Source: Terriglobales bacterium (GTDB taxonomy: Bacteria; Acidobacteriota; Terriglobia; Terriglobales; Acidobacteriaceae). Taken from it: DNA of 64,000 bases. The notes beneath the pieces are model-generated. The model was not told where the DNA came from, did no database searches, and saw nothing but the letters and a program-made list of their open reading frames with translations. Below are positions 3,357 through 44,592 of this stretch, one piece after another (the first letter of the stretch is position 1; each line of letters starts with the position of its first letter). The position numbers were made by a program, and so were the translations under genes. Location of the stretch: the NCBI GenBank assembly GCA_035651995.1, contig DASRER010000008.1:4065-68064 (forward strand). The letters run 5' to 3'.

Positions 3357-4634
3357 TTATGGATGCGCGTCTCGAGCGAGGACGGGAATCGTTTGCGGTC
3401 CGTGCGGCATTACGCACAGAGTGGAATTCGGGCCGCGAGCTTGAAGGACATCCCGCACCGTCTTTTCAACGTCATCAATTGGCTCACAGTGCGCCTTCCG
3501 AACCTGATCCGGCGAGAGCCCGTCCGCGCGAACCAGGACGCGGGCCTTACGCTGAATCTGTGCCTGGATTTGTACCTGCCACTGATCAGGCATGCTGAAA
3601 CCCGGTGTGTGGATCATTTCCAGCAGGCGCTCGGGTGAAGGTTGGGATGCCAGAACGGTCCCGTAAGACCCGTGATCGGGTAGACCATCCCGGCACTCCG
3701 CGGCACAAATGATTATTCCGCCCGGCTTGACGACCCGGCTTGCCGCCGACATACCCTTTACGGCCTGGTAGAGGTTCTGGTCCAGGGGATATCCGGAATT
3801 GGTAGTGAGCACGACGTCGAAGGGCTCGGCCACCTCGCGAAGGGCGGACTGCCGCACCGCTTCGCACGCACGCCGGTGCTCGGTGAACAGTTCTCCCGCG
3901 AAAACGCCGGTTATTTTCTTGTCCTCATTCAGGGTCACGTCAATGGCAAAATGAACACCGGTCGTTCGGGCGATTCTTCTGATGTCGTCATGGACGGGGT
4001 TTCCCTCAATAACACCCCATGTGGCGGATGGATGTCCAATCCGTTTTGCGTCGTGCAGGACCATAACGGTTTCCAAGCCGGCAAGGCCTGGAGCAACCAT
4101 CTTGGGACCACCGCTGAATCCGGCGAAGAAATGTGGTTCGACGAACCCGGTTGTGATCCGCAAATCCGCTTCGAGCCAAAGGCGGTTGAGAAGGACCGGT
4201 ACACCTCCGATTCGTCCAAAGTCAACCAGCACTCCAGGATCACGGCTGTCGTGATTCACAACCCGGCAACTGCTCAACACGTAGCGGCCCAACATGCTCT
4301 CGAGCTCACGATCACTGTTGCCCCGATGCGTGCCGGTGGCGATCAGGATCGTGACATCAATCGCGTGAAGAGCCTTGAGCTCGTGTAACACGGCCTCGAC
4401 CATTTCTCGTCGAGGTTGCGGGCGCGTGATATCGCAGACCGAAATGGCCACATGTCGCGCGTGACGCGCTACGTGCTTCAGAGGAGGTCCCGCGACCGGA
4501 TCTCGCAGAGCCGCCATCAACGCACTAGCGGGGTCGGAAATGGCGCGAGTGGAAACTGGCTTGATCACAGTTACGCGCTCATCAGGAAGCGAGACCTCCA
4601 AGCCTGACGTTCCGTAGTCGAGACGCAGCCGCAT
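3357..4634 (-). CDS. LarA-family (DUF2088) nickel-pincer-nucleotide dependent 2-hydroxyacid racemase/epimerase
   Basis: 425 aa. ATGTHRGN matches the catalytic His region. VEPHFFAGFSGGPK carries the second catalytic His and the cofactor-tethering Lys. A downstream His lies in HDAKRIGHP. The length matches lactate racemase. Confidence 0.8.
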   Translation of the reverse strand: MRLRLDYGTSGLEVSLPDERVTVIKPVSTRAISDPASALMAALRDPVAGPPLKHVARHARHVAISVCDITRPQPRREMVEAVLHELKALHAIDVTILIATGTHRGNSDRELESMLGRYVLSSCRVVNHDSRDPGVLVDFGRIGGVPVLLNRLWLEADLRITTGFVEPHFFAGFSGGPKMVAPGLAGLETVMVLHDAKRIGHPSATWGVIEGNPVHDDIRRIARTTGVHFAIDVTLNEDKKITGVFAGELFTEHRRACEAVRQSALREVAEPFDVVLTTNSGYPLDQNLYQAVKGMSAASRVVKPGGIIICAAECRDGLPDHGSYGTVLASQPSPERLLEMIHTPGFSMPDQWQVQIQAQIQRKARVLVRADGLSPDQVRKAHCEPIDDVEKTVRDVLQARGPNSTLCVMPHGPQTIPVLARDAHP

Positions 4635-29166: not shown

Positions 29167-29268
29167 CACGGCTGGCCGGGAGACGTTGCAAGCAATGTCT
29201 CCAAAAAAAAAGCGCGCAGCCGAAGCCGCGCGCACTATCCACTGGACCACGTTCCACTCTCCACTGCT

Positions 29269-30165
29269 TTACCGGCCTGAGCCTCCGGTACCCAGCGTCA
29301 CCGGGCGGCTGAGTTCCATGAAGATTTCCGTGCCGGCGGGAATGTCTTCCGAGTGCTTGCGGGCGAGGAAGCGCACGGCTTCCACGGTTGCGCCCACACC
29401 CGCTCCGATGAGCGTGCCCTTGGCGGTGTGCGCAATCAGCGCGCCAACGATCGCGCCACCGCCCGTGAAGATGCCCAGGTCGCGGATGTCGCGGCCGCTG
29501 TGGCCCACGCCCTTCATGCGGCCCTCTTCATCGACGTCGATGTCGTTGGTGAGGTTGGTATCAACCACGACGGCGTTGATGTTCATGCGCTCGCCGGATG
29601 GCATGATGACCGTTTCCGGCATGATGTTGATGCTGGGCACGCCGCGGAAGCGCCGCGATTCAGAAACGTGCGTCACGCGGCCCTCGACCGATGCGCCGAC
29701 AGGGATAACGGTGCGGCCGCCCAGGGACACTGATTCCATCAGGCGTCCGGAGAACATGTCGCCCTTGCGGCTGCTGGAGGTGGAGAGCGGCGTTTCCAGC
29801 TTCATGCGCAGCGTAGTGCCCACGGGCAACACGCCGTCCATGGAGGCGGCGCTGCCTGCGGTCTTTTCGTTCAGGTCAGCACCCGGCGTTTCCTGCTTCG
29901 CGGGCGCGACCGCAGGAGCGGCCGGCGCCGCCGCGGCCGGCGCCGCCGCGGCCGGGGCGATTGCTGTTGAGGGCGCTGCCGCCGGCGTCGCGGGTTCGGT
30001 GACTGCCCTCACCTGCGGCGAAGAGGCTTCGGTGGTGCGGCCATTCTCCAGCGCGATGCGGCCGGCCGATGGCTTCTGCCTGCTTGTGGTTTGCTGTGCC
30101 GCCACGACGACGGAGGTTGAAACCACCGCCAACAGCGCCAGCACGGCCAATGTCTTGTGCTTCAT
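29269..30165 (-). CDS. secreted hypothetical protein: Ala/Pro-rich linker, beta-rich core, C-terminal glycine-zipper
   Basis: 298 aa. Signal peptide MKHKTLAVLALLAVVSTSVVVAAQ, a low-complexity AAAPAAAAPAAPAVAPA stretch, the core LPVGTTLRMKLETPLSTSSSRKGDMF...IPVGASVEGRV, and GGGAIVGALIAHTAKGTLIGAGVGA. Confidence 0.6.
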   Translation of the reverse strand: MKHKTLAVLALLAVVSTSVVVAAQQTTSRQKPSAGRIALENGRTTEASSPQVRAVTEPATPAAAPSTAIAPAAAAPAAAAPAAPAVAPAKQETPGADLNEKTAGSAASMDGVLPVGTTLRMKLETPLSTSSSRKGDMFSGRLMESVSLGGRTVIPVGASVEGRVTHVSESRRFRGVPSINIMPETVIMPSGERMNINAVVVDTNLTNDIDVDEEGRMKGVGHSGRDIRDLGIFTGGGAIVGALIAHTAKGTLIGAGVGATVEAVRFLARKHSEDIPAGTEIFMELSRPVTLGTGGSGR

Positions 30166-30244
30166 GTTGCCTCCATTCTTGCAGCCTGGTTCCGGTTATG
30201 GCCTGAGCGCGGGCCCGGGCTCCAGCGCTCCGTATTGCGAACAC

Positions 30245-30745
30245 TCATCGCTGCGCCGCAATAGCGTCGAACACCTGATTCAGCGGCGCGCGGTCGGTTT
30301 GCGTGCTGCCCACGTAAATCCAGCGAATGGTCCCGTCCTGTCGCACCACGAACGTCGCCGGGCGCGCGATGTTGAACGCGTCGTGCCCGAGGCGGTGGTA
30401 AACGCCGTAAGCCTTCGTCACCGTGCGGTCCTCGTCGAGCAGGAAGGGGAATGGCACCGGGTCCTTCTGCAAAAACTGCTCCGGCCTGAACATGCCGCCC
30501 CGTTTTTCCGCCGCGATGAACGCGAACCCCGCGCCCAGGTCGCGAATTTTCTGCGCCGCTTCCGGCCCGAACTGGGCCATGCGCTTGACGCAGTTCGGTC
30601 ACCATGTGCCGCGCAGAAACTCCAGCACCGCCGGCCCGTCGCGCAACAGGTCGGCCATCGCCACCAGGCCCTCGCGATTCGCCGCCGGAAGCGTGAACGC
30701 CGGCGCGTGGTCGCCGACTTTCAAAGTTTCCGAAGCACGCGCCAC
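30245..30745 (-). CDS. peroxiredoxin-like (AhpC/TSA-redoxin) thiol oxidoreductase, probable selenoprotein with TGA(Sec) at 30601..30599 (U-P-N-C motif)
   Basis: ORFs 30599..30883 and 30245..30580 share one frame and are separated only by a TGA. Read through, the junction is LKVGDHAPAFTL...LEFLRGTW-[TGA]-PNCVKRMAQF...PFPFLLDEDRTVTKAYGV...ARPATFVVRQDGTIRWIYVG. The start is uncertain: GTG 30745, or TTG 30724 giving MKVGDHAP. Confidence 0.65.
30567..30598 (-). promoter_or_regulatory. SECIS-like hairpin immediately 3' of the in-frame UGA
   Basis: Minus strand: UGA CCGAACUG [C GUC AAGCGCAU GGC C] CAGUUCGG. There is a perfect 8-bp stem, then a C/C mismatch, then 3 further pairs (G-C, U-G, C-G) closing an 8-nt apical loop. 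Confidence 0.5.
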
Positions 30746-30807
30746 TGTCGCGACTCTAGAACAGGCACGAGGGCGGAACAACGACGGAAACGCGCGGGAA
30801 CCAAGGT

Positions 30808-30849
30808 GGTTAGTGCAGGAAGCAGTTCTCGGTTGCCGGTCGTCAGTTG
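30808..30849. repeat. about 42-nt dispersed element (copy 1) 60-105 nt upstream of the minus-strand redoxin gene
   Basis: GGTTAGTGCAGGAAGCAGTTCTCGGTTGCCGGTCGTCAGTTG compared with 50663-50705 GGTTAGCAGAGCAGGACAGTTCTCAGTTGCCGGTTGTCACTTG. The core matches at 24 of 27 positions. It has an internal heptamer periodicity (CAGTTCT CGGTTGC CGGTCGT CAGTTGC). Confidence 0.55.
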
Positions 30850-30902
30850 CCAGCTCGCACCTGGAGAAACTGGCAAGAAGCAACCTACAACTGGCGACTC
30901 GG

Positions 30903-32287
<1,385 letters not shown>

Positions 32288-32393: not shown

Positions 32394-33524
32394 CTATCCC
32401 GGCTGCTGCTGGGTCATGCAGTGCAGCGTACCCAATCCCCACACCAGGTCGCCGCAGTGGATGCCCACGACGTCGCGGTCCGGGAAGAGTTCGGCGAGCG
32501 TGTTCAGCGCCACGCGATCGTTGCGATCATTGAAGGTTGGAACCAGCACAAGGCGATTGGCGATGTAGAAGTTCGCGTAGCTGGCGGGCAGGCGCCGGCC
32601 GCGATGGATGATGGGCCGCGGCATGGGCAGCTCGACGACGCGGAGCTGGCGTCCGGTTTCGGTGGCCGCTTCGCGGAGGCGGCGAAGATTGTCGGCCAGC
32701 GGCTCGTAGTTGGCGTCGGCCGGATCGGGCTCGGAGGCGCACACGACGACATCCGGCGCGACGAAGCGGGCAACGTCGTCCACGTGGCCGTGGGTGTCGT
32801 CGCCGACGATTCCGCTTCCCAGCCAGATGGTGTTGGTCACGCCCAGATATTCCGCGAAGGCGCGCTCCAGGTCTTCGCGGGTGGCGCCGGGATTGCGCTG
32901 CTGGACATCGGAGAGGAGGCACTCCTCGGTCGTCAGCATCGAACCGAAGCCGTTCACGTCGATGCTGCCGCCTTCCAGGACCATGTGGGCGCCGTCTTCG
33001 CCGATGCGGGGAGAAAATTCGGGGACCTTCAAATGCCTGGCGGCACGCCCGGGGATGGCGTTGTCGAGCTTCCAGTCGTTGTACTTGGCCCAGGCGTTGA
33101 AGCGGAAGTTGACCACGGCGACCGGCGCGGCGCCGTCCTTCTTCTTCCGGCGCGCGCTGCCACGCGCTCTTGGTCCGTCGTTGCGGACGAAGATGGGGCC
33201 GGAATCGCGCGTCCAGCCGCGGTTGGTGGGCCAGCGCAGGAACTCGACCGTCTCGCGCAGGGCGTTGGCGCGCTGGAGGACCTCGCGCGCGTGGTCTTCT
33301 GCGGCCTGGCTGTTCACCAGGATGCGCACGCGCTCGACCTGCGCGAGGTGGTAAACAATGTCGGCATACACCCACGGAATGGGCTGGAACTTGCCCGGCC
33401 AGTCGGTCTGGTTGTGCGGCCAGCCGAGCCAGGTGCCCTCGTGCGGCTCCCACTCGGCGGGCATGCGGTAGCCGAGGGATTGGGGCGTCCTGTTTTGTTT
33501 GCGCTTCATCCTGGATTGCTGCAT
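32394..33524 (-). CDS. aguA: agmatine deiminase
   Basis: 376 aa. YRMPAEWEPHEGTWLGWPH, GGSIDVNGFGSMLTTEECLL and the C-terminal catalytic GTLHCMTQQQP. Confidence 0.9.
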   Translation of the reverse strand: MQQSRMKRKQNRTPQSLGYRMPAEWEPHEGTWLGWPHNQTDWPGKFQPIPWVYADIVYHLAQVERVRILVNSQAAEDHAREVLQRANALRETVEFLRWPTNRGWTRDSGPIFVRNDGPRARGSARRKKKDGAAPVAVVNFRFNAWAKYNDWKLDNAIPGRAARHLKVPEFSPRIGEDGAHMVLEGGSIDVNGFGSMLTTEECLLSDVQQRNPGATREDLERAFAEYLGVTNTIWLGSGIVGDDTHGHVDDVARFVAPDVVVCASEPDPADANYEPLADNLRRLREAATETGRQLRVVELPMPRPIIHRGRRLPASYANFYIANRLVLVPTFNDRNDRVALNTLAELFPDRDVVGIHCGDLVWGLGTLHCMTQQQPG

Positions 33525-33574
33525 TGCCGAATTGCCGAACTGCGGAATTGAATTTCAATTCGGCAATTCGGCAG
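33523..33574. repeat. tandem octamer 'TGCCGAA' word element, copy 2, forming a 15-nt-arm inverted repeat between aguB and aguA
   Basis: TGCCGAATTGCCGAA (33525-33539) is the exact reverse complement of TTCGGCAATTCGGCA (33559-33573). There is an inner AATTGAA/TTCAATT palindrome. Confidence 0.65.
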
Positions 33575-33575
33575 T

Positions 33576-34472
33576 CTAGTCGATCAGCCGCTGCGTGATG
33601 CCGCCGTAGCTGTCAATACGGCGGTCGCGCAGGAAGGGCCAGTTGCGGCGCACGTCTTCCAGCTTGCGCGCATCCACTTCGGCGACCAGCACTTCTTCGC
33701 GGTCGTGTCCCGCTTCGGCGACGACGACCCCGAAGGGGTCGCAGATAAACGAGCCGCCCCAGAATTCCAGCCCGTCGCCGGGGGCGCGGTTGCCGCGGAC
33801 GCTGCCCGTCTCGTGGCCCACGCGGTTCACTCCGCCAACGTAGACGCCGTTGGCGATGGCGTGGGCGCGCTGGATGGTGCGCCACGCATCGTGCTGCTGC
33901 TTGCCGAATTCCTTCTTCTCCGAGGGGTGCCAGCCGATCGCCGTGGGATAGAAGAGGACCTGGGCGCCTTGCAGCGCCGTGAGCCGCGCGCCCTCCGGAT
34001 ACCACTGGTCCCAGCAAACGAGCGCGCCGATCTTGCCGAAGTCGGTGTCGAAGGCCTTGAAACCGAGATCGCCGGGCGTGAAGTAGAACTTTTCGTAGTA
34101 GAGCGGGTCGTCGGGGATGTGCATCTTGCGATACAACCCGCGCACGGTCCCGTCGGCGCCGAGCACCACCGCCGTGTTGTGATATACGCCGGCGGCGCGT
34201 TTCTCGAAGACCGACGCGATCACGACGATCTTCGCCTTGCGCGCCACATCGGCCAGCGCCAGCGTGGTCGGGCCGGGGACAGGCTCCGCCAGGTCGAACA
34301 GGCCGGCGTCTTGGCGCTGGCAGAAGTACTGCGTGCGGAAGAGCTCGGGCAGGCAAACGACGTTGGCGCCCCTGGCGGCGGCGTCGCGCGTCATTTCAAC
34401 AGCGTGCGCCAGGTTCTGGTCGGGATCGGGGCCGCAGCGCATCTGCACCAGCCCGATGCGATACAGGTCAGG
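33576..34472 (-). CDS. aguB: N-carbamoylputrescine amidase (nitrilase superfamily)
   Basis: The ORF opens at 34613. The likely start is TTG 34472, 8 nt after AAGGAG. YRIGLVQM, CLPELF, and CWDQWYPEGARLTALQGAQVLFYPTAIGW (catalytic Cys context). Confidence 0.85.
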   Translation of the reverse strand, partial: PDLYRIGLVQMRCGPDPDQNLAHAVEMTRDAAARGANVVCLPELFRTQYFCQRQDAGLFDLAEPVPGPTTLALADVARKAKIVVIASVFEKRAAGVYHNTAVVLGADGTVRGLYRKMHIPDDPLYYEKFYFTPGDLGFKAFDTDFGKIGALVCWDQWYPEGARLTALQGAQVLFYPTAIGWHPSEKKEFGKQQHDAWRTIQRAHAIANGVYVGGVNRVGHETGSVRGNRAPGDGLEFWGGSFICDPFGVVVAEAGHDREEVLVAEVDARKLEDVRRNWPFLRDRRIDSYGGITQRLID

Positions 34473-34641
34473 CAAAATCGCGTCTCCTTGGCGCAACCGA
34501 CTAGCATAGCAAACGAGCACCGAGTCCTGAGTGGCAAGTGCTGAGTGGCGCGAATTGCGCCTTTGTTTTATTGACGCCGTGTGAAATTTTCTTGTAGTTT
34601 TGCACTTCGTCACGGAAGAAATTCTTTGCGAGGGTTCGACC

Positions 34642-35838
34642 TTGAAGGACCATCACGAGGGTGAGCATCACGAGGGCGCGGGCATCGAGCGCAAGCTGCA
34701 CGACCCTGTCGCCGACAAGCTGGTCCCGCTCGATCCGCTGGACCTTTCGCAGGTCCGCTCGATCGACGACCTGGTGCGCGCCATGGGACGCACCGCCTTT
34801 ACCGGGCGCCAGCTCGGCGAGGCCGCCGACGTGCTCGAGGCGATGGCGCGCGACAAGCAGTGCTTCGTGGTGATGACGCTGGCGGGCGCGATGACGGTGG
34901 CCAAGCAGGGCCTGGTGATCGCCGACCTGATCGACTACGGCGTGGTGAAGGCCATCGTCTCCACCGGCGCGCTGATGGCGCACGGCCTGGTGGAGGCCAC
35001 CGGCAAGTCCCACTTCCGCTACGACGCCAAGCTGAACGACGTTGAGCTGTATGAAGCCGGCTACAACCGCGTGTACGACACGCTGGAGCCGGAGACGAAC
35101 CTGGACCACGTCGAAGCGGTGGTCGGTGAGATCCTGGAGAACTGGGACCCGAAAGAGACGCTGTGCTCGTGGCAGTTGAACCGGGCCATCGGCGAGCACC
35201 TGCACAAGCACTCGCCCGGCCGCGGCATCCTGAAGTCGGCCTACGAAAAAGGCGTGCCGGTGTTCGTGCCGGCGTTCACCGACTCCGAACTGGGGCTCGA
35301 CGTGGCGCTCACCAACCGCATGCGCAAGCGCAACGGCAAGCCGCCGCTCAAGTACGATCCCTTCCTCGATTTGGAGCACTTTGCCGACACCATGCTGAAG
35401 CCCAAGCGCATCGGCATCTTCACCATCGGCGGCGGCGTGCCGCGCAACTGGGCGCAGCAGTTCGGGCCGTACATTGAATTGCGCTGGCGCCGCGGCGGCG
35501 AGCCGATGCCGCTCAAGCGCTATCACTATGGGTTGCGCATCTGTCCTGAGCCGGTGTATTGGGGCGGTCTGTCGGGCTCGCCTTACAGCGAAGCCATCTC
35601 GTGGGGCAAGTTCGTTCCGCCCGCGGAAGGCGGACGCTTCGGCGAAGTTTTCGTGGACGCGACGGTGGGATTGCCGCTGATTGTCGCCGCGGTATTCGAG
35701 CGGCTGGGCCTTGGGGCGGGGGCGGCTGAGAAGAAAAATGCCGGCCCGGCGAAGGCGGGTACTCACTCGCCGCAGCTATCCGCGGCGTCGTCGAAGAACG
35801 GCAAGTCGAGGGTCCGAGCGCCGGCCCGGAAGAAATAG
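34642..35838 (+). CDS. deoxyhypusine synthase-like protein (candidate homospermidine synthase)
   Basis: The ORF opens at 34600. TTG 34642 follows a GAGGG. TLAGAMTVAKQGLVIADLIDYGVVKAIVSTGALMAHGLVE, FVPAFTDSELG and GGGVPRNW are DHS-family features. Confidence 0.8.
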   Translation: MKDHHEGEHHEGAGIERKLHDPVADKLVPLDPLDLSQVRSIDDLVRAMGRTAFTGRQLGEAADVLEAMARDKQCFVVMTLAGAMTVAKQGLVIADLIDYGVVKAIVSTGALMAHGLVEATGKSHFRYDAKLNDVELYEAGYNRVYDTLEPETNLDHVEAVVGEILENWDPKETLCSWQLNRAIGEHLHKHSPGRGILKSAYEKGVPVFVPAFTDSELGLDVALTNRMRKRNGKPPLKYDPFLDLEHFADTMLKPKRIGIFTIGGGVPRNWAQQFGPYIELRWRRGGEPMPLKRYHYGLRICPEPVYWGGLSGSPYSEAISWGKFVPPAEGGRFGEVFVDATVGLPLIVAAVFERLGLGAGAAEKKNAGPAKAGTHSPQLSAASSKNGKSRVRAPARKK

Positions 35839-35847
35839 GCAGCGGTC

Positions 35848-36405
35848 CTACTCGAAGATCAGGATTGCCGACGCGATCACGGTCGTCCACAGGCCGCGCT
35901 TATCGCCCACCGCCGACTGCGTCATGTTCATGGTGCGGACGATCTTGTTCGACAGGCGATAGATCTGCTTCTTCTCGTCCCAGCTCTTTTCCGAGTCGAA
36001 CTCCACATTCAGCGTAGTGGCGAGCATCTCGGCGGCTAGTTCCTCGGCGTAGTCGCCGGCCGCGTCTTCGGTTTCGCCAAAGCTGTGGTGCTCGCTCAGG
36101 TAGCCGTAGGTGGTGCGGTCGGCGGGAATCGCCAGGCCGATGCTGGAAGCCATCAGGCGGTGCGGCTCACGGGTGGAGTTTTCCGCGACCACGGCAAACA
36201 CGACTTCGCCGGGCGAGAGGTAGCGCAATCCCAGCGCCCGCGGGATGAGCTTGCAGTTGGGCGGAAAGATGGAAGAGACGCGGACCAGGTTTTGCGCGGC
36301 GATGCCCGCGTCCCGAAGCGCCAGCTCAAACGACGTCAGCCGTTCTTTGTGCTTTCCCACCCCCTTGGTGAGAAAAATGCGCTTGGGGACCATGTCTTTC
36401 GACAA
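35848..36405 (-). CDS. pdaD: pyruvoyl-dependent arginine decarboxylase
   Basis: 185 aa. [43 protein letters not shown] contains the Ser-Ser self-cleavage site of PvlArgDC. Confidence 0.85.
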
Positions 36406-42893: not shown

Positions 42894-43430
42894 TCAACGA
42901 GCGGCGCGGCGCTCGGGCGACAGCCTGGTCAGGTAGTCCATGATCTCGGGTGTGGTCCAGTTCACCGGGCCGATGAATTTGCGCCGCATCACGCCCTCCG
43001 AGTCAATCACGTAGGTTTCCGGGAACTTGAAGGTGCCGTAGAGGGTGTTGCTGGCCTGGCGCGGGTCGCGGACGGTGAGCAGGTCGATGTTGTACTTCGT
43101 GAGGAAATTGCGATAGGCGTCGGCGTCCTCGTCGGTGCTGACGGCGAGCACCACCACGCCCTTGTCGCGCAACTGCCGCTGCATGGCCATCAGCGATGGC
43201 ATTTCTTCGATGCACGGCGGACACCACGTCGCCCAAAAATTCAGAACCACCGTTTTGCCGCGAAGACCGCTGAGCGACACGCTTCGCTGCTGATCATTGA
43301 CCGTGAAATCGGGCGCGGGGGAGCCGATCTTGGGCGGGGCCGTGCCGCGATCGCAGGCGGAAGCGAGCAACAGAAGCGCGATTGCGGCAGCCACACGGCG
43401 CACAAACGTATAATAACAACTTCGCCTCAT
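42894..43430 (-). CDS. TlpA/ResA-like thiol:disulfide oxidoreductase (thioredoxin fold)
   Basis: The ORF opens at 43778. The likely start is ATG 43430 or GTG 43403 (MRRVAAAIALLLLASAC). VVLNFWATWCPPCIEEMP carries the redox motif. Confidence 0.8.
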   Translation of the reverse strand: MRRSCYYTFVRRVAAAIALLLLASACDRGTAPPKIGSPAPDFTVNDQQRSVSLSGLRGKTVVLNFWATWCPPCIEEMPSLMAMQRQLRDKGVVVLAVSTDEDADAYRNFLTKYNIDLLTVRDPRQASNTLYGTFKFPETYVIDSEGVMRRKFIGPVNWTTPEIMDYLTRLSPERRAAR

Positions 43431-44592
43431 GCCGCCGCAGCCGCCAGGACCGCCTGCATCGCGCCGCAAGCAGCCGTCGTCCGCGGCAGAAGATGCGGCG
43501 GCGCCGCTGGTTTCGGTGGTCGTGCCGGCGCGCAATGAGGAAATCTCGATCGGCGAGTGCCTGGCATCACTAACGGACCAGAATGGCGTTTCCTGCGAGA
43601 TCATTGTGGTGGATGACGATTCGAGCGACGCGACGGGGGAGGTCGCGCGTTCGTTCCCGGGCGTGAAAGTGATCGCGGCCGGGCCGCTGCCGGCCGGCTG
43701 GAGCGGCAAGTCGAACGCCTGCGCCACCGGCGCACGGCAAGCGCGCGGCAAGTGGCTGCTGTTCACCGACGCTGACACGGTTCACCTGCCTGGTTCGCTG
43801 GCGCGCGCCGTGGCCGAAGCGGAGAATTGCGGCGCCGATTTGCTGTCTTACTCGCCGGAGCAGGTGACCGACACGGTGTGGGGGCAGGCGGTGATGCCGG
43901 TGATCTTTGCCGAGCTGGCGGGGACCTATCGTCCGCGCGAGGTTTCGGACCCGGCATCTGCCGCGGCCGCGGCCAATGGGCAGTATTTGCTGATCACGCG
44001 TGAAGCCTACGACGCAGTGGGCGGGCACGCCGCCGCAGCGACGACGCTTCTGGAAGACGTGGAGCTGGCGCGCCGCGTGAAGCGCAGCGGCCGCCATTTG
44101 CAATTCCGCTTCGGCGGCGATGCGGTGCGCACGCGCATGTACCGCAGCTTTGAGCAACTGCGCGAGGGCTGGACGAAGAACCTGGCGCTGCTGTTTCCCG
44201 AGGCCGAAGAACTGGCCGCGCGCCGCGGACTGGAGTTTGCCGCCATCGTGGGCGGCGCGGCCGTCGGCGCATGGGCGGCCGCCAGCGGACGCCGCGGCCT
44301 GGCCATCGCCTCAGGCGCGCTTGCGGCCGCAGCTTACGGCAACTTTCGCCGGCGCATCCACCGTGCCCATGCCGGCGGCCGCGCCGAAACGCTGGCGCTG
44401 CTGGGGCTGCCGCTGTTTGCGTATCTCCTGCGGCGGTCGGCGCAACGCTACGCCGGCGAGGGCGAGGTTACCTGGAAGGGAAGAAGTTACTCCGCACAAA
44501 CGGCGGAAAGACTCACCGCCGGTGAAGGCGGGTTCCGCGGACCAATTCACGAAGCCGCGGGCCCGCCGAACTCATCGGTCATGAGTGACTGA
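43429..44592 (+). CDS. family 2 glycosyltransferase with C-terminal membrane segments
   Basis: 387 aa. VSVVVPARNEEISIGECLASL, IIVVDDDSSD, LLFTDADT, and hydrophobic C-terminal helices. The start is uncertain; an internal GTG before VVPARNE is possible. Confidence 0.75.
   Translation: MPPQPPGPPASRRKQPSSAAEDAAAPLVSVVVPARNEEISIGECLASLTDQNGVSCEIIVVDDDSSDATGEVARSFPGVKVIAAGPLPAGWSGKSNACATGARQARGKWLLFTDADTVHLPGSLARAVAEAENCGADLLSYSPEQVTDTVWGQAVMPVIFAELAGTYRPREVSDPASAAAAANGQYLLITREAYDAVGGHAAAATTLLEDVELARRVKRSGRHLQFRFGGDAVRTRMYRSFEQLREGWTKNLALLFPEAEELAARRGLEFAAIVGGAAVGAWAAASGRRGLAIASGALAAAAYGNFRRRIHRAHAGGRAETLALLGLPLFAYLLRRSAQRYAGEGEVTWKGRSYSAQTAERLTAGEGGFRGPIHEAAGPPNSSVMSD

Follow-up and report, generated by a model that had tools for sequence, protein, structure and literature searches.

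An in-frame UGA codon in a Terriglobales bacterium (Acidobacteriota) almost certainly encodes selenocysteine (Sec) as the active-site residue of a peroxiredoxin-like (Prx-like) protein, a reading built on comparison of orthologous sequences. The gene lies on the minus strand of contig DASRER010000008.1 (GenBank assembly GCA_035651995.1), within a 64,000-nucleotide (nt) stretch, positions 4,065 to 68,064, that was analyzed as a whole and is referred to here as the window. Positions 30745..30245 of the window (minus strand) are one gene for a compact protein of ~166 amino acids (aa), neither two genes nor a pseudogene. Domain searches and orthologue comparisons establish a single protein domain that runs across the UGA, Cys at the equivalent site of homologues, conservation of the UGA itself, purifying selection on both of its flanks, and selection at the RNA level for a hairpin just downstream.

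One gene across a conserved in-frame UGA

The coding region appears in the minus strand as two open reading frames (ORFs), 30599..30883 and 30245..30580, which share one frame and are separated only by a TGA (30601..30599) and six sense codons (PNCVKR). A previous inspection of the DNA letters alone (the sequence-only reading) had drawn attention to this pair, and translation confirmed it. Read through, the minus strand gives ...AVLEFLRGTW, then the stop, then PNCVKRMAQFGPE..., with the motif RGTW-[TGA]-PNC at the interrupted site; the peptides that had been quoted from either half (LKVGDHAPAFTL, PFPFLLDEDRTVTKAYGV, and ARPATFVVRQDGTIRWIYVG) are all found in the read-through product. As we delimit it, the complete selenoprotein gene spans 30245..30745 (minus strand), with a GTG start at 30745..30743, 166 codons that include Sec49 and Cys52, and a terminal TGA at 30247..30245. 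We infer the GTG start codon from the N termini of orthologues (e.g., MARESSTLKVGD and MAETSTLKVGD), and no clear Shine-Dalgarno sequence was seen before GTG 30745. The proposed Sec codon, the in-frame UGA at 30599..30601 (minus strand), holds the first position of a W-U-P-N-C motif. Its partner in the U-x-x-C center is Cys52, identified by orthologue conservation and structure alignments and specified by the codon at 30590..30592 (minus strand), which is TGC in 101 and TGT in 1 of 102 unique orthologous segments.

When the read-through product was searched from GTG 30745 with Cys replacing the stop, it matched the Pfam families Redoxin (2.3e-21) and AhpC-TSA (PF00578; 1.8e-20) above their gathering scores, as a single domain of residues 9-156 that spans the stop. 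Since this one domain crosses the stop and both flanks evolve as coding sequence, the earlier proposal of one gene rather than two stands. Standard gene callers do mis-split the gene, as had been predicted; public calls at the locus contain only a 111-aa C-terminal piece. The identical sequence is present in four independent contigs.

The UGA is robustly conserved among relatives, whose DNA we drew from species-representative genomes and metagenomes. The homologous codon is TGA in 119 loci (43 from genomes, the window included, and 76 from metagenomes), TGC or TGT in 4, TTA in 1, and TAA or TAG in none. The same codon is therefore TGA in 118 loci besides the window; the sequence-only reading had named recurrence of the TGA in orthologues as a check on its proposal. 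Most TGA carriers are Terriglobales; the others are Vicinamibacterales, Gemmatimonadaceae, Dormibacterota, and one deltaproteobacterial metagenome-assembled genome (MAG).

At the protein level, a search returned 1,842 database matches, 120 of which were listed (64 full-length and 56 truncated). Among the matches listed are full-length Cys homologues of ~165 aa with 50-61% identity, together with products of 110-112 aa and 64-81% identity that share one starting Met (MAQF/LG/EP). A CxxC-type motif stands at the UGA site in ~60 of the 64 listed full-length matches (48 by a strict pattern, the rest by eye), and this motif, along with the four TGC/TGT loci, bears out the placement of the UGA at the first position of W-C-P-x-C. 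Three full-length database proteins (P0016, P0018, and P0023) read W-W-P-N-C; presumably a pipeline rendered the Sec UGA as Trp under genetic code 4 and so gave a wrong product.

The sequence ahead of the TGA behaves as a protein-coding region. Its peptide is kept among orthologues (TLxVGDxAPxFxLxAAN...EFLRGTW), and variability by codon position upstream of the TGA is 0.24/0.18/0.42. Our dN/dS estimates, rough because dS is saturated, are ~0.26 over the 22 codons that precede the TGA and 0.21-0.36 in the part downstream of it. These substitution patterns place the peptide ahead of the TGA under purifying selection. As an ordinary stop, TGA is used more often than any other in the window, ending 11 of 21 confident genes, this one included, and the code has therefore not been reassigned genome-wide.

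A likely SECIS hairpin downstream of the UGA

The interpretation of this gene as Sec-decoded is further supported by a hairpin 3' of the UGA that resembles a bacterial selenocysteine insertion sequence (SECIS). A conserved upper stem-loop, UGGCCC-AGUUC-GGGCCG, occupies 30563..30579 (minus strand; -10.0 kcal/mol) and is recovered both from pairing in orthologues and by RNAalifold. Its apical loop, AGUUC (30569..30573, minus strand), contains G30572 and U30571 as the presumed SelB contact, and the AGUU of this loop is invariant in the co-linear clade. Folding of the region downstream of the UGA is more stable than that of shuffled sequences (z = -3.05; 2 of 200 shuffles were equally stable). The minimum-energy fold (-25.5 to -29 kcal/mol) adds an extended lower stem (CUGCGUC/GGCGCAG plus GC/GC; 30551..30593, minus strand), which the RNAalifold consensus across orthologues did not recover and which we therefore consider lineage-specific.

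The published model of the bacterial SECIS (bSECIS) specifies an upper stem of 4-16 bp capped by 3-9 loop nucleotides, a G in loop positions 1-2, usually followed by G or U, a distance of 16-37 nt from the UGA to the apical loop, and a free energy of -7.5 kcal/mol or lower (PMC13188914). The window's hairpin agrees on all four counts, with a 5-nt loop on 6 bp, G-U at loop positions 2-3, a spacing of 25 nt, and -10.0 kcal/mol for the upper stem by itself, or -26 once the lower stem is added. Across the 43 Sec-form genome loci, the UGA-to-loop spacing is 25-26 nt in 31, and it is 20-21 nt in distant forms. A first application of the bSECIS model, which admitted uninterrupted stems only, passed 17 of these 43 loci; it was too strict, because many orthologues carry a bulge or mismatch, and when it was repeated with bulges allowed, 40 of 43 Sec forms passed and none of 3 Cys forms did.

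Substitutions in the stem are those expected of a selected RNA structure. Across 37 orthologues, 93.5% of cells are paired in the 30579..30563 stem, and the pair of columns 34 and 46 is GC in 26, AU in 8, GU in 3, and never broken. In the 102 unique co-linear sequences, A34 is accompanied by U46 in 9 of 9 cases, at the cost of Ala-to-Thr and Pro-to-Ser replacements, and G44 by C36 in 10 of 10, the window's own Glu-to-Gly change among them. Synonymous sites are similarly frozen where they enter the structure: the loop G39 is invariant (102/102), with its Gln codon CAG in 101 of 101 and never CAA; C35 pairs with the G of a Glu codon that is GAG in 92 of 92 and never GAA; and the stem Ala codon ends only in C or U. 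All four bases are found at loop position 5 and at the position after the stem, and neighboring Lys, Glu, and Gln codons end in both A and G. In distant Sec forms the corresponding place is taken by unrelated hairpins, whose loops are GGU, GUG, GGC, or GGUCG.

The Cys forms tell a complementary story. Three of them (L013, L015, and L085) nest within the Sec clade, share MAQME(A/G), and keep the 5' half of the hairpin (GGCUCAG), its pairing lost; on this pattern they look like reversions from Sec to Cys after which the SECIS decayed. We regard the 30579..30563 hairpin as a likely SECIS under selection at the RNA level, on the strength of its compensatory changes, its frozen synonymous sites, and its absence from the Cys forms.

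The sequence-only reading had drawn a different hairpin, 30567..30598 (minus strand), in which CCGAACUG (30598-30591) pairs with CAGUUCGG (30574-30567) and three further pairs close the loop AAGCGCAU. That pairing is physically present (-14.9 kcal/mol), overlaps the putative SECIS, and is mutually exclusive with it; the minimum-energy fold and the RNAalifold consensus both choose 30579..30563 over this competitor. On the 37-orthologue alignment, 79% of the drawn hairpin is paired, its covariation is not above that of shuffles, and its outer pairs are mostly broken (the window alone has pair 13-44, and breaks affect 15-42 in 20 of 37 orthologues and 24-33 in 19 of 37). It also departs from the bSECIS model on two points, having no G in positions 1-2 of AAGCGCAU and a UGA-to-loop distance of 12 nt versus 16-37. 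We therefore rejected it as a functional element for want of covariation and for its broken outer pairs. The expectation that a hairpin would be kept together with the TGA failed for the drawn structure and held for the overlapping one at 30579..30563.

Three further observations concern this region. RNAalifold also predicts a tiny UGC/GCA helix between the UGA and the SECIS (window 30581..30593; columns 19-21 with 29-31 of the genome alignment A2), which is uninformative because it is almost invariant, and which may come simply from the Cys and Arg codons. A metagenome locus within the set L053-L132, with the peptide MA*LEP, has TAG for the hairpin Gln codon, so that the C37-G43 pair is lost and a genuine stop is introduced; this locus is likely a pseudogene or a read error. 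Finally, TTA (Leu) replaces the Sec codon in L104 (metagenome contig WNFY01278512.1) and in protein P0005, giving W-L-P-N-C with the SECIS-type hairpin intact; the TTA in L104 is either an error or a mutation, inactivating or altering, of very recent origin.

Proposed mechanism and the evidence that weighs against it

The kept TGA of the 119 loci and the hairpin 3' of it make Sec decoding, as the sequence-only reading had proposed, the best supported account of this gene. We consider it highly probable, on comparative grounds, that the hairpin at 30579..30563 brings in SelB, loaded with Sec-tRNA(Sec), for Sec insertion at the UGA, and that Sec49 and Cys52 form a redox couple. In this mechanism the UGA at 30601..30599 would be decoded as Sec: the hairpin, with its AGUUC loop 25 nt past the UGA, would recruit the SelB complex, and the ribosome would insert Sec and not terminate. 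The gene's terminal UGA has no such hairpin and would act as a normal stop. Sec49 would be the nucleophile, cycling with Cys52 between a selenolate/thiol and a selenenylsulfide, and the protein would act as a thiol:disulfide oxidoreductase, possibly as a peroxide reductase, recharged by a cellular thiol reductant. We infer the incorporation of Sec, the contact with SelB, the redox chemistry, and the substrates.

Several observations weigh against this interpretation. Foremost, selA, selB, selD, and tRNA-Sec were not found within the 64-kb window, which we searched with ARAGORN and Rfam for RNA genes, with Pfam on ~30 ORFs, and with precomputed Pfam results for the central 20 kb. ARAGORN likewise found no tRNA-Sec in 42 related loci. 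At gathering thresholds, Rfam returned tRNA-Arg alone from the window, with no match at the hairpin, and tRNA-Arg is the only tRNA that the window contains. With 5-6 bp the conserved stem is short, and no variation is seen in two of its five pairs. Columns 36 and 44 show a C.A mismatch in 42 of the 102 unique sequences. Pairing could shift register, bulging out A44, where column 42 has a G, and that G accompanies the mismatch in 10 of 12 cases in genome alignment A2 but in only 9 of 42 in the larger set. The association p-values ignore shared ancestry, and some of the conservation seen in the hairpin might stem from the MAQ(F/L)(E/G)P peptide, but the frozen synonymous sites speak against such an origin. 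Lastly, no NCBIfam model reaches its cutoff for the protein, the best being ResA at 42.9 versus 170 bits.

The Sec trait is on record for the order. Occallatibacter riparius, a member of the Terriglobales, is listed as Sec-utilizing (PMC12013277), and its three selenoproteins are AhpD-like, deiodinase-like, and FdhA, none of them Prx-like (PMC12013277 supplement); four selenoproteins had been listed for the Acidobacteria in 2006 (PMC1794560). The trait is thus documented for the Terriglobales, and the present clade is not thereby catalogued.

Alternative explanations

Conservation of the UGA, coding-type evolution on both of its sides, and stop usage in the window together lead us to exclude a pseudogene, a sequencing error, two separate genes, and genetic codes 4 or 25. 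The account that survives best beside Sec insertion is read-through that delivers a different residue, either Ser from an allo-tRNA with a UCA anticodon or Cys from a selC* tRNA-Cys, with or without SelB. Mukai et al. described allo-tRNAs of Acidobacteria as possible nonsense suppressors and selC* tRNA-Cys species with a UCA anticodon in other phyla (PMC5389517), and these reports are what recommends the idea. The selC* species, however, come from Firmicutes, Thermodesulfobacteria, Nitrospirae, and Proteobacteria, not from Acidobacteria (PMC5389517), and the sole tRNA of the window is its tRNA-Arg. A hairpin with a G-U loop at the canonical distance suits decoding by SelB, whereas a general suppressor needs none; efficient general suppression would be costly where TGA is the commonest ordinary stop; and a UGA kept for Cys or Ser would bring no evident benefit that TGC or TCN lacks. 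We accordingly judge read-through without Sec to be very improbable. A broader form of the same doubt holds that the UGA is not, or not only, a Sec codon, with Ser or Cys at residue 49 or a selenium-dependent switch between Sec, Cys, and termination, and to this we attach a similarly small likelihood. The data reveal selection for the UGA and for a SelB-type hairpin, but they speak only indirectly to the residue inserted.

That the locus yields two products, a short N-terminal peptide ending at the UGA and an independent 111-aa protein started at ATG 30580, is scarcely credible to us. This ATG is kept across the Terriglobales clade (MAQ...) and is used by annotation pipelines, yet its AUG (U32, G33) forms the base of the conserved stem. 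The distant Sec forms have no Met after the UGA, with Leu or Phe at that site, and so offer no start for a second gene. A whole thioredoxin fold is found in neither piece, alignments from both Pfam and PDB cross the junction, and the Cys-form homologues are single proteins of ~165 aa.

We give essentially no credence to a third account, in which the TGA marks a pseudogene, or a sequencing or assembly error in a CxxC Prx-like gene, and the 111-aa ORF is a remnant or nothing at all. The 111-aa product of the gene callers and the lack of sel genes in the window are compatible with decay, but 118 further loci, drawn from independent assemblies and spanning several phyla, have the same TGA, never TAA or TAG, and the window's sequence itself recurs in four independent contigs; the 22 upstream codons, moreover, retain their low dN/dS (~0.26) and third-position periodicity. 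Reassignment of TGA to Trp or Gly throughout the genome (code 4 or 25), for which the three W-W-P-N-C proteins might be cited, is no serious contender, given that 11 of the 21 confident window genes stop at TGA at the length expected for their families, that a crude screen of the window for other in-frame-TGA genes, comparing G+C content at third codon positions on either side of each TGA, gave no convincing candidate, and that Trp would not occupy a redox CxxC position.

A compact branch of a known selenoprotein family

With Sec insertion retained as the preferred reading, the protein can be set among its relatives. Prx-like thiol:disulfide oxidoreductases (PF00578, UxxC) are a listed family of bacterial selenoproteins (PMC1794560, PMC2398784, PMC5029168, PMC13188914), catalogued since ~2005-2006 (PMC1794560, PMC2398784, PMC13188914), and a 2026 review describes the family as only "predicted with high confidence" (PMC13188914). 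Reference members carry F-Y-R-G-x-W-U-P-Y-C (PMC12013277 supplement). In BLASTP the window protein aligns with WP_010940744.1 of Geobacter sulfurreducens over the whole domain (E = 7e-14, 24% identity), U on U, and with a second reference selenoprotein at E = 8e-20 and 31% identity, again U on U and with RGxW-U-PxC aligned. Like these proteins (exemplar WP_010940744.1; GOS "Prx-like 1"), it has an AhpC-TSA domain with Sec first in R-G-x-W-U-P-x-C, a Pro at the thioredoxin cis-Pro site (P-x-T-F), homologues with Cys, and a hairpin 3' of the UGA. Unlike them, it has neither the ~45-aa N-terminal extension nor the ~20-aa insertion before the last strands, and it reads W-U-P-N-C where they read W-U-P-Y-C. 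The window-type gene is found mainly in aerobic soil Terriglobales, whereas the Prx-like references come from anaerobic Deltaproteobacteria or Clostridia, and the Terriglobales clade has no entry in the published selenoprotein lists that we compared. From these alignments, the window protein is best seen as a compact new subfamily, Terriglobales-wide, of a known selenoprotein family.

The best PDB match is BCP of Aeropyrum pernix (3.9e-13, query residues 8-148), followed by ResA/TlpA-type proteins. Aligned with BCP, the protein has U at the Ser of S-x-x-C(P) and Cys52 at the peroxidatic Cys, and a Pro (P-A-T-F), the thioredoxin cis-Pro signature, stands in place of the catalytic Arg. The protein thus shares its overall fold with canonical peroxiredoxins (BCP/PrxQ), with Cys52 on their peroxidatic Cys, but differs both from them and from the TxxU Sec-peroxiredoxins (PrxU) in having Sec at the Thr/Ser of PxxxTxxC rather than at the peroxidatic Cys; against the PrxU model it scores 20 bits, where the cutoff is 270. 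Because the Pro of PxxxTxxC is Arg here, its Thr/Ser is Sec, and the catalytic Arg is Pro, we would describe the protein not as a canonical peroxiredoxin but as an AhpC-TSA scaffold with a thioredoxin-type U-x-x-C center. It resembles CxxC oxidoreductases of the TlpA/ResA/DsbE type in that TW-C-P-P-C of PDB 3kcm (ResA/TlpA-type) aligns with TW-U-P-N-C and P-x-T-F is present, and differs from them in having Sec for Cys and no signal peptide or membrane anchor by inspection, for which reason it is probably cytoplasmic.

The putative SECIS can be compared in the same way. Like the bacterial consensus (bSECISearch; Escherichia coli fdhF type), it lies inside the coding sequence directly 3' of the UGA, with a 5-nt loop, G-U at loop positions 2-3, a 6-bp upper stem, a spacing of 25 nt, and about -10 kcal/mol. 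Unlike the fdhF element, to which its sequence is unrelated, it has a C.A mismatch or a bulged A in the stem in ~40% of orthologues.

Genomic surroundings

The selenoprotein gene stands head-to-head with enolase (30935..32287, plus strand) and is followed, after an 80-nt gap, by a gene for a 298-aa protein (29269..30165, minus strand) with a well-formed Shine-Dalgarno sequence, GGAGG, before its ATG. By inspection, this 298-aa protein has a signal-peptide-like N terminus and an Ala/Pro-rich linker; its single family match is a weak one to Gly-zipper_YMGG (E = 0.0022), and NCBIfam gave none. No terminator was seen between the two genes, and a strong intrinsic-terminator-like hairpin, a 9-bp stem with 8 G-C pairs followed by T9, lies beyond the second at 29212..29233 (minus strand). 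The 298-aa gene is the downstream neighbor in 31 related loci, and the order enolase, Prx-like gene, 298-aa gene, and GH57 is repeated in 20-31 related loci. This recurring order indicates vertical inheritance in the Terriglobales and a likely two-gene operon; the selenoprotein and 298-aa genes are probably co-transcribed, judging from their layout, with the putative operon ended by 29233..29212. The same enolase, 298-aa, and GH57 neighbors surround a Terriglobales-type gene in L026 (DASPLH010000121.1), a contig labeled "Clostridia bacterium"; that contig or its MAG is probably mis-binned or misclassified.

A 573-aa ORF on the plus strand, 29186..30907, runs antisense to both genes and is of low complexity by inspection. 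Public calls place minus-strand genes here, and the ORF is an antisense artifact of the high G+C content (63%) and not a gene. Elsewhere in the window, 42894..43778 (minus strand) encodes a second AhpC-TSA/Redoxin/Thioredoxin_8 protein, TlpA-like, with its domain at residues 151-278; the N-terminal part of this ORF overlaps a glycosyltransferase ORF on the opposite strand, and the true start of the gene is therefore probably later. Beside enolase lies a polyamine cluster, at ~32394..36400 (4188..8187 in L052), with PvlArgDC, a pyruvoyl-dependent arginine decarboxylase, a deoxyhypusine-synthase-like gene (DS), CN_hydrolase, and an agmatine deiminase (PAD_porph).

Implications

This gene is currently stored as a 111-aa "peroxiredoxin" or as a wrong-code translation at no fewer than 119 loci and among the 1,842 database matches, where 56 of the 120 listed are truncated. 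Because no NCBIfam model captures it, automated pipelines will go on splitting it. Our understanding of Sec decoding is unchanged by these results, which amount to a useful re-annotation and would not surprise a specialist. The clade is nevertheless a clean case of an RNA structure that constrains a protein, in which the putative SECIS would force the MAQ(F/L)(E/G)P peptide and drive the paired Ala/Pro-to-Thr/Ser replacements, and it also displays apparent reversions from Sec to Cys with decaying remnants of the hairpin. A corrected annotation would add a widespread selenoprotein to the Terriglobales, which are among the dominant groups of soil bacteria, and would bear on estimates of selenium use by soil microbes.

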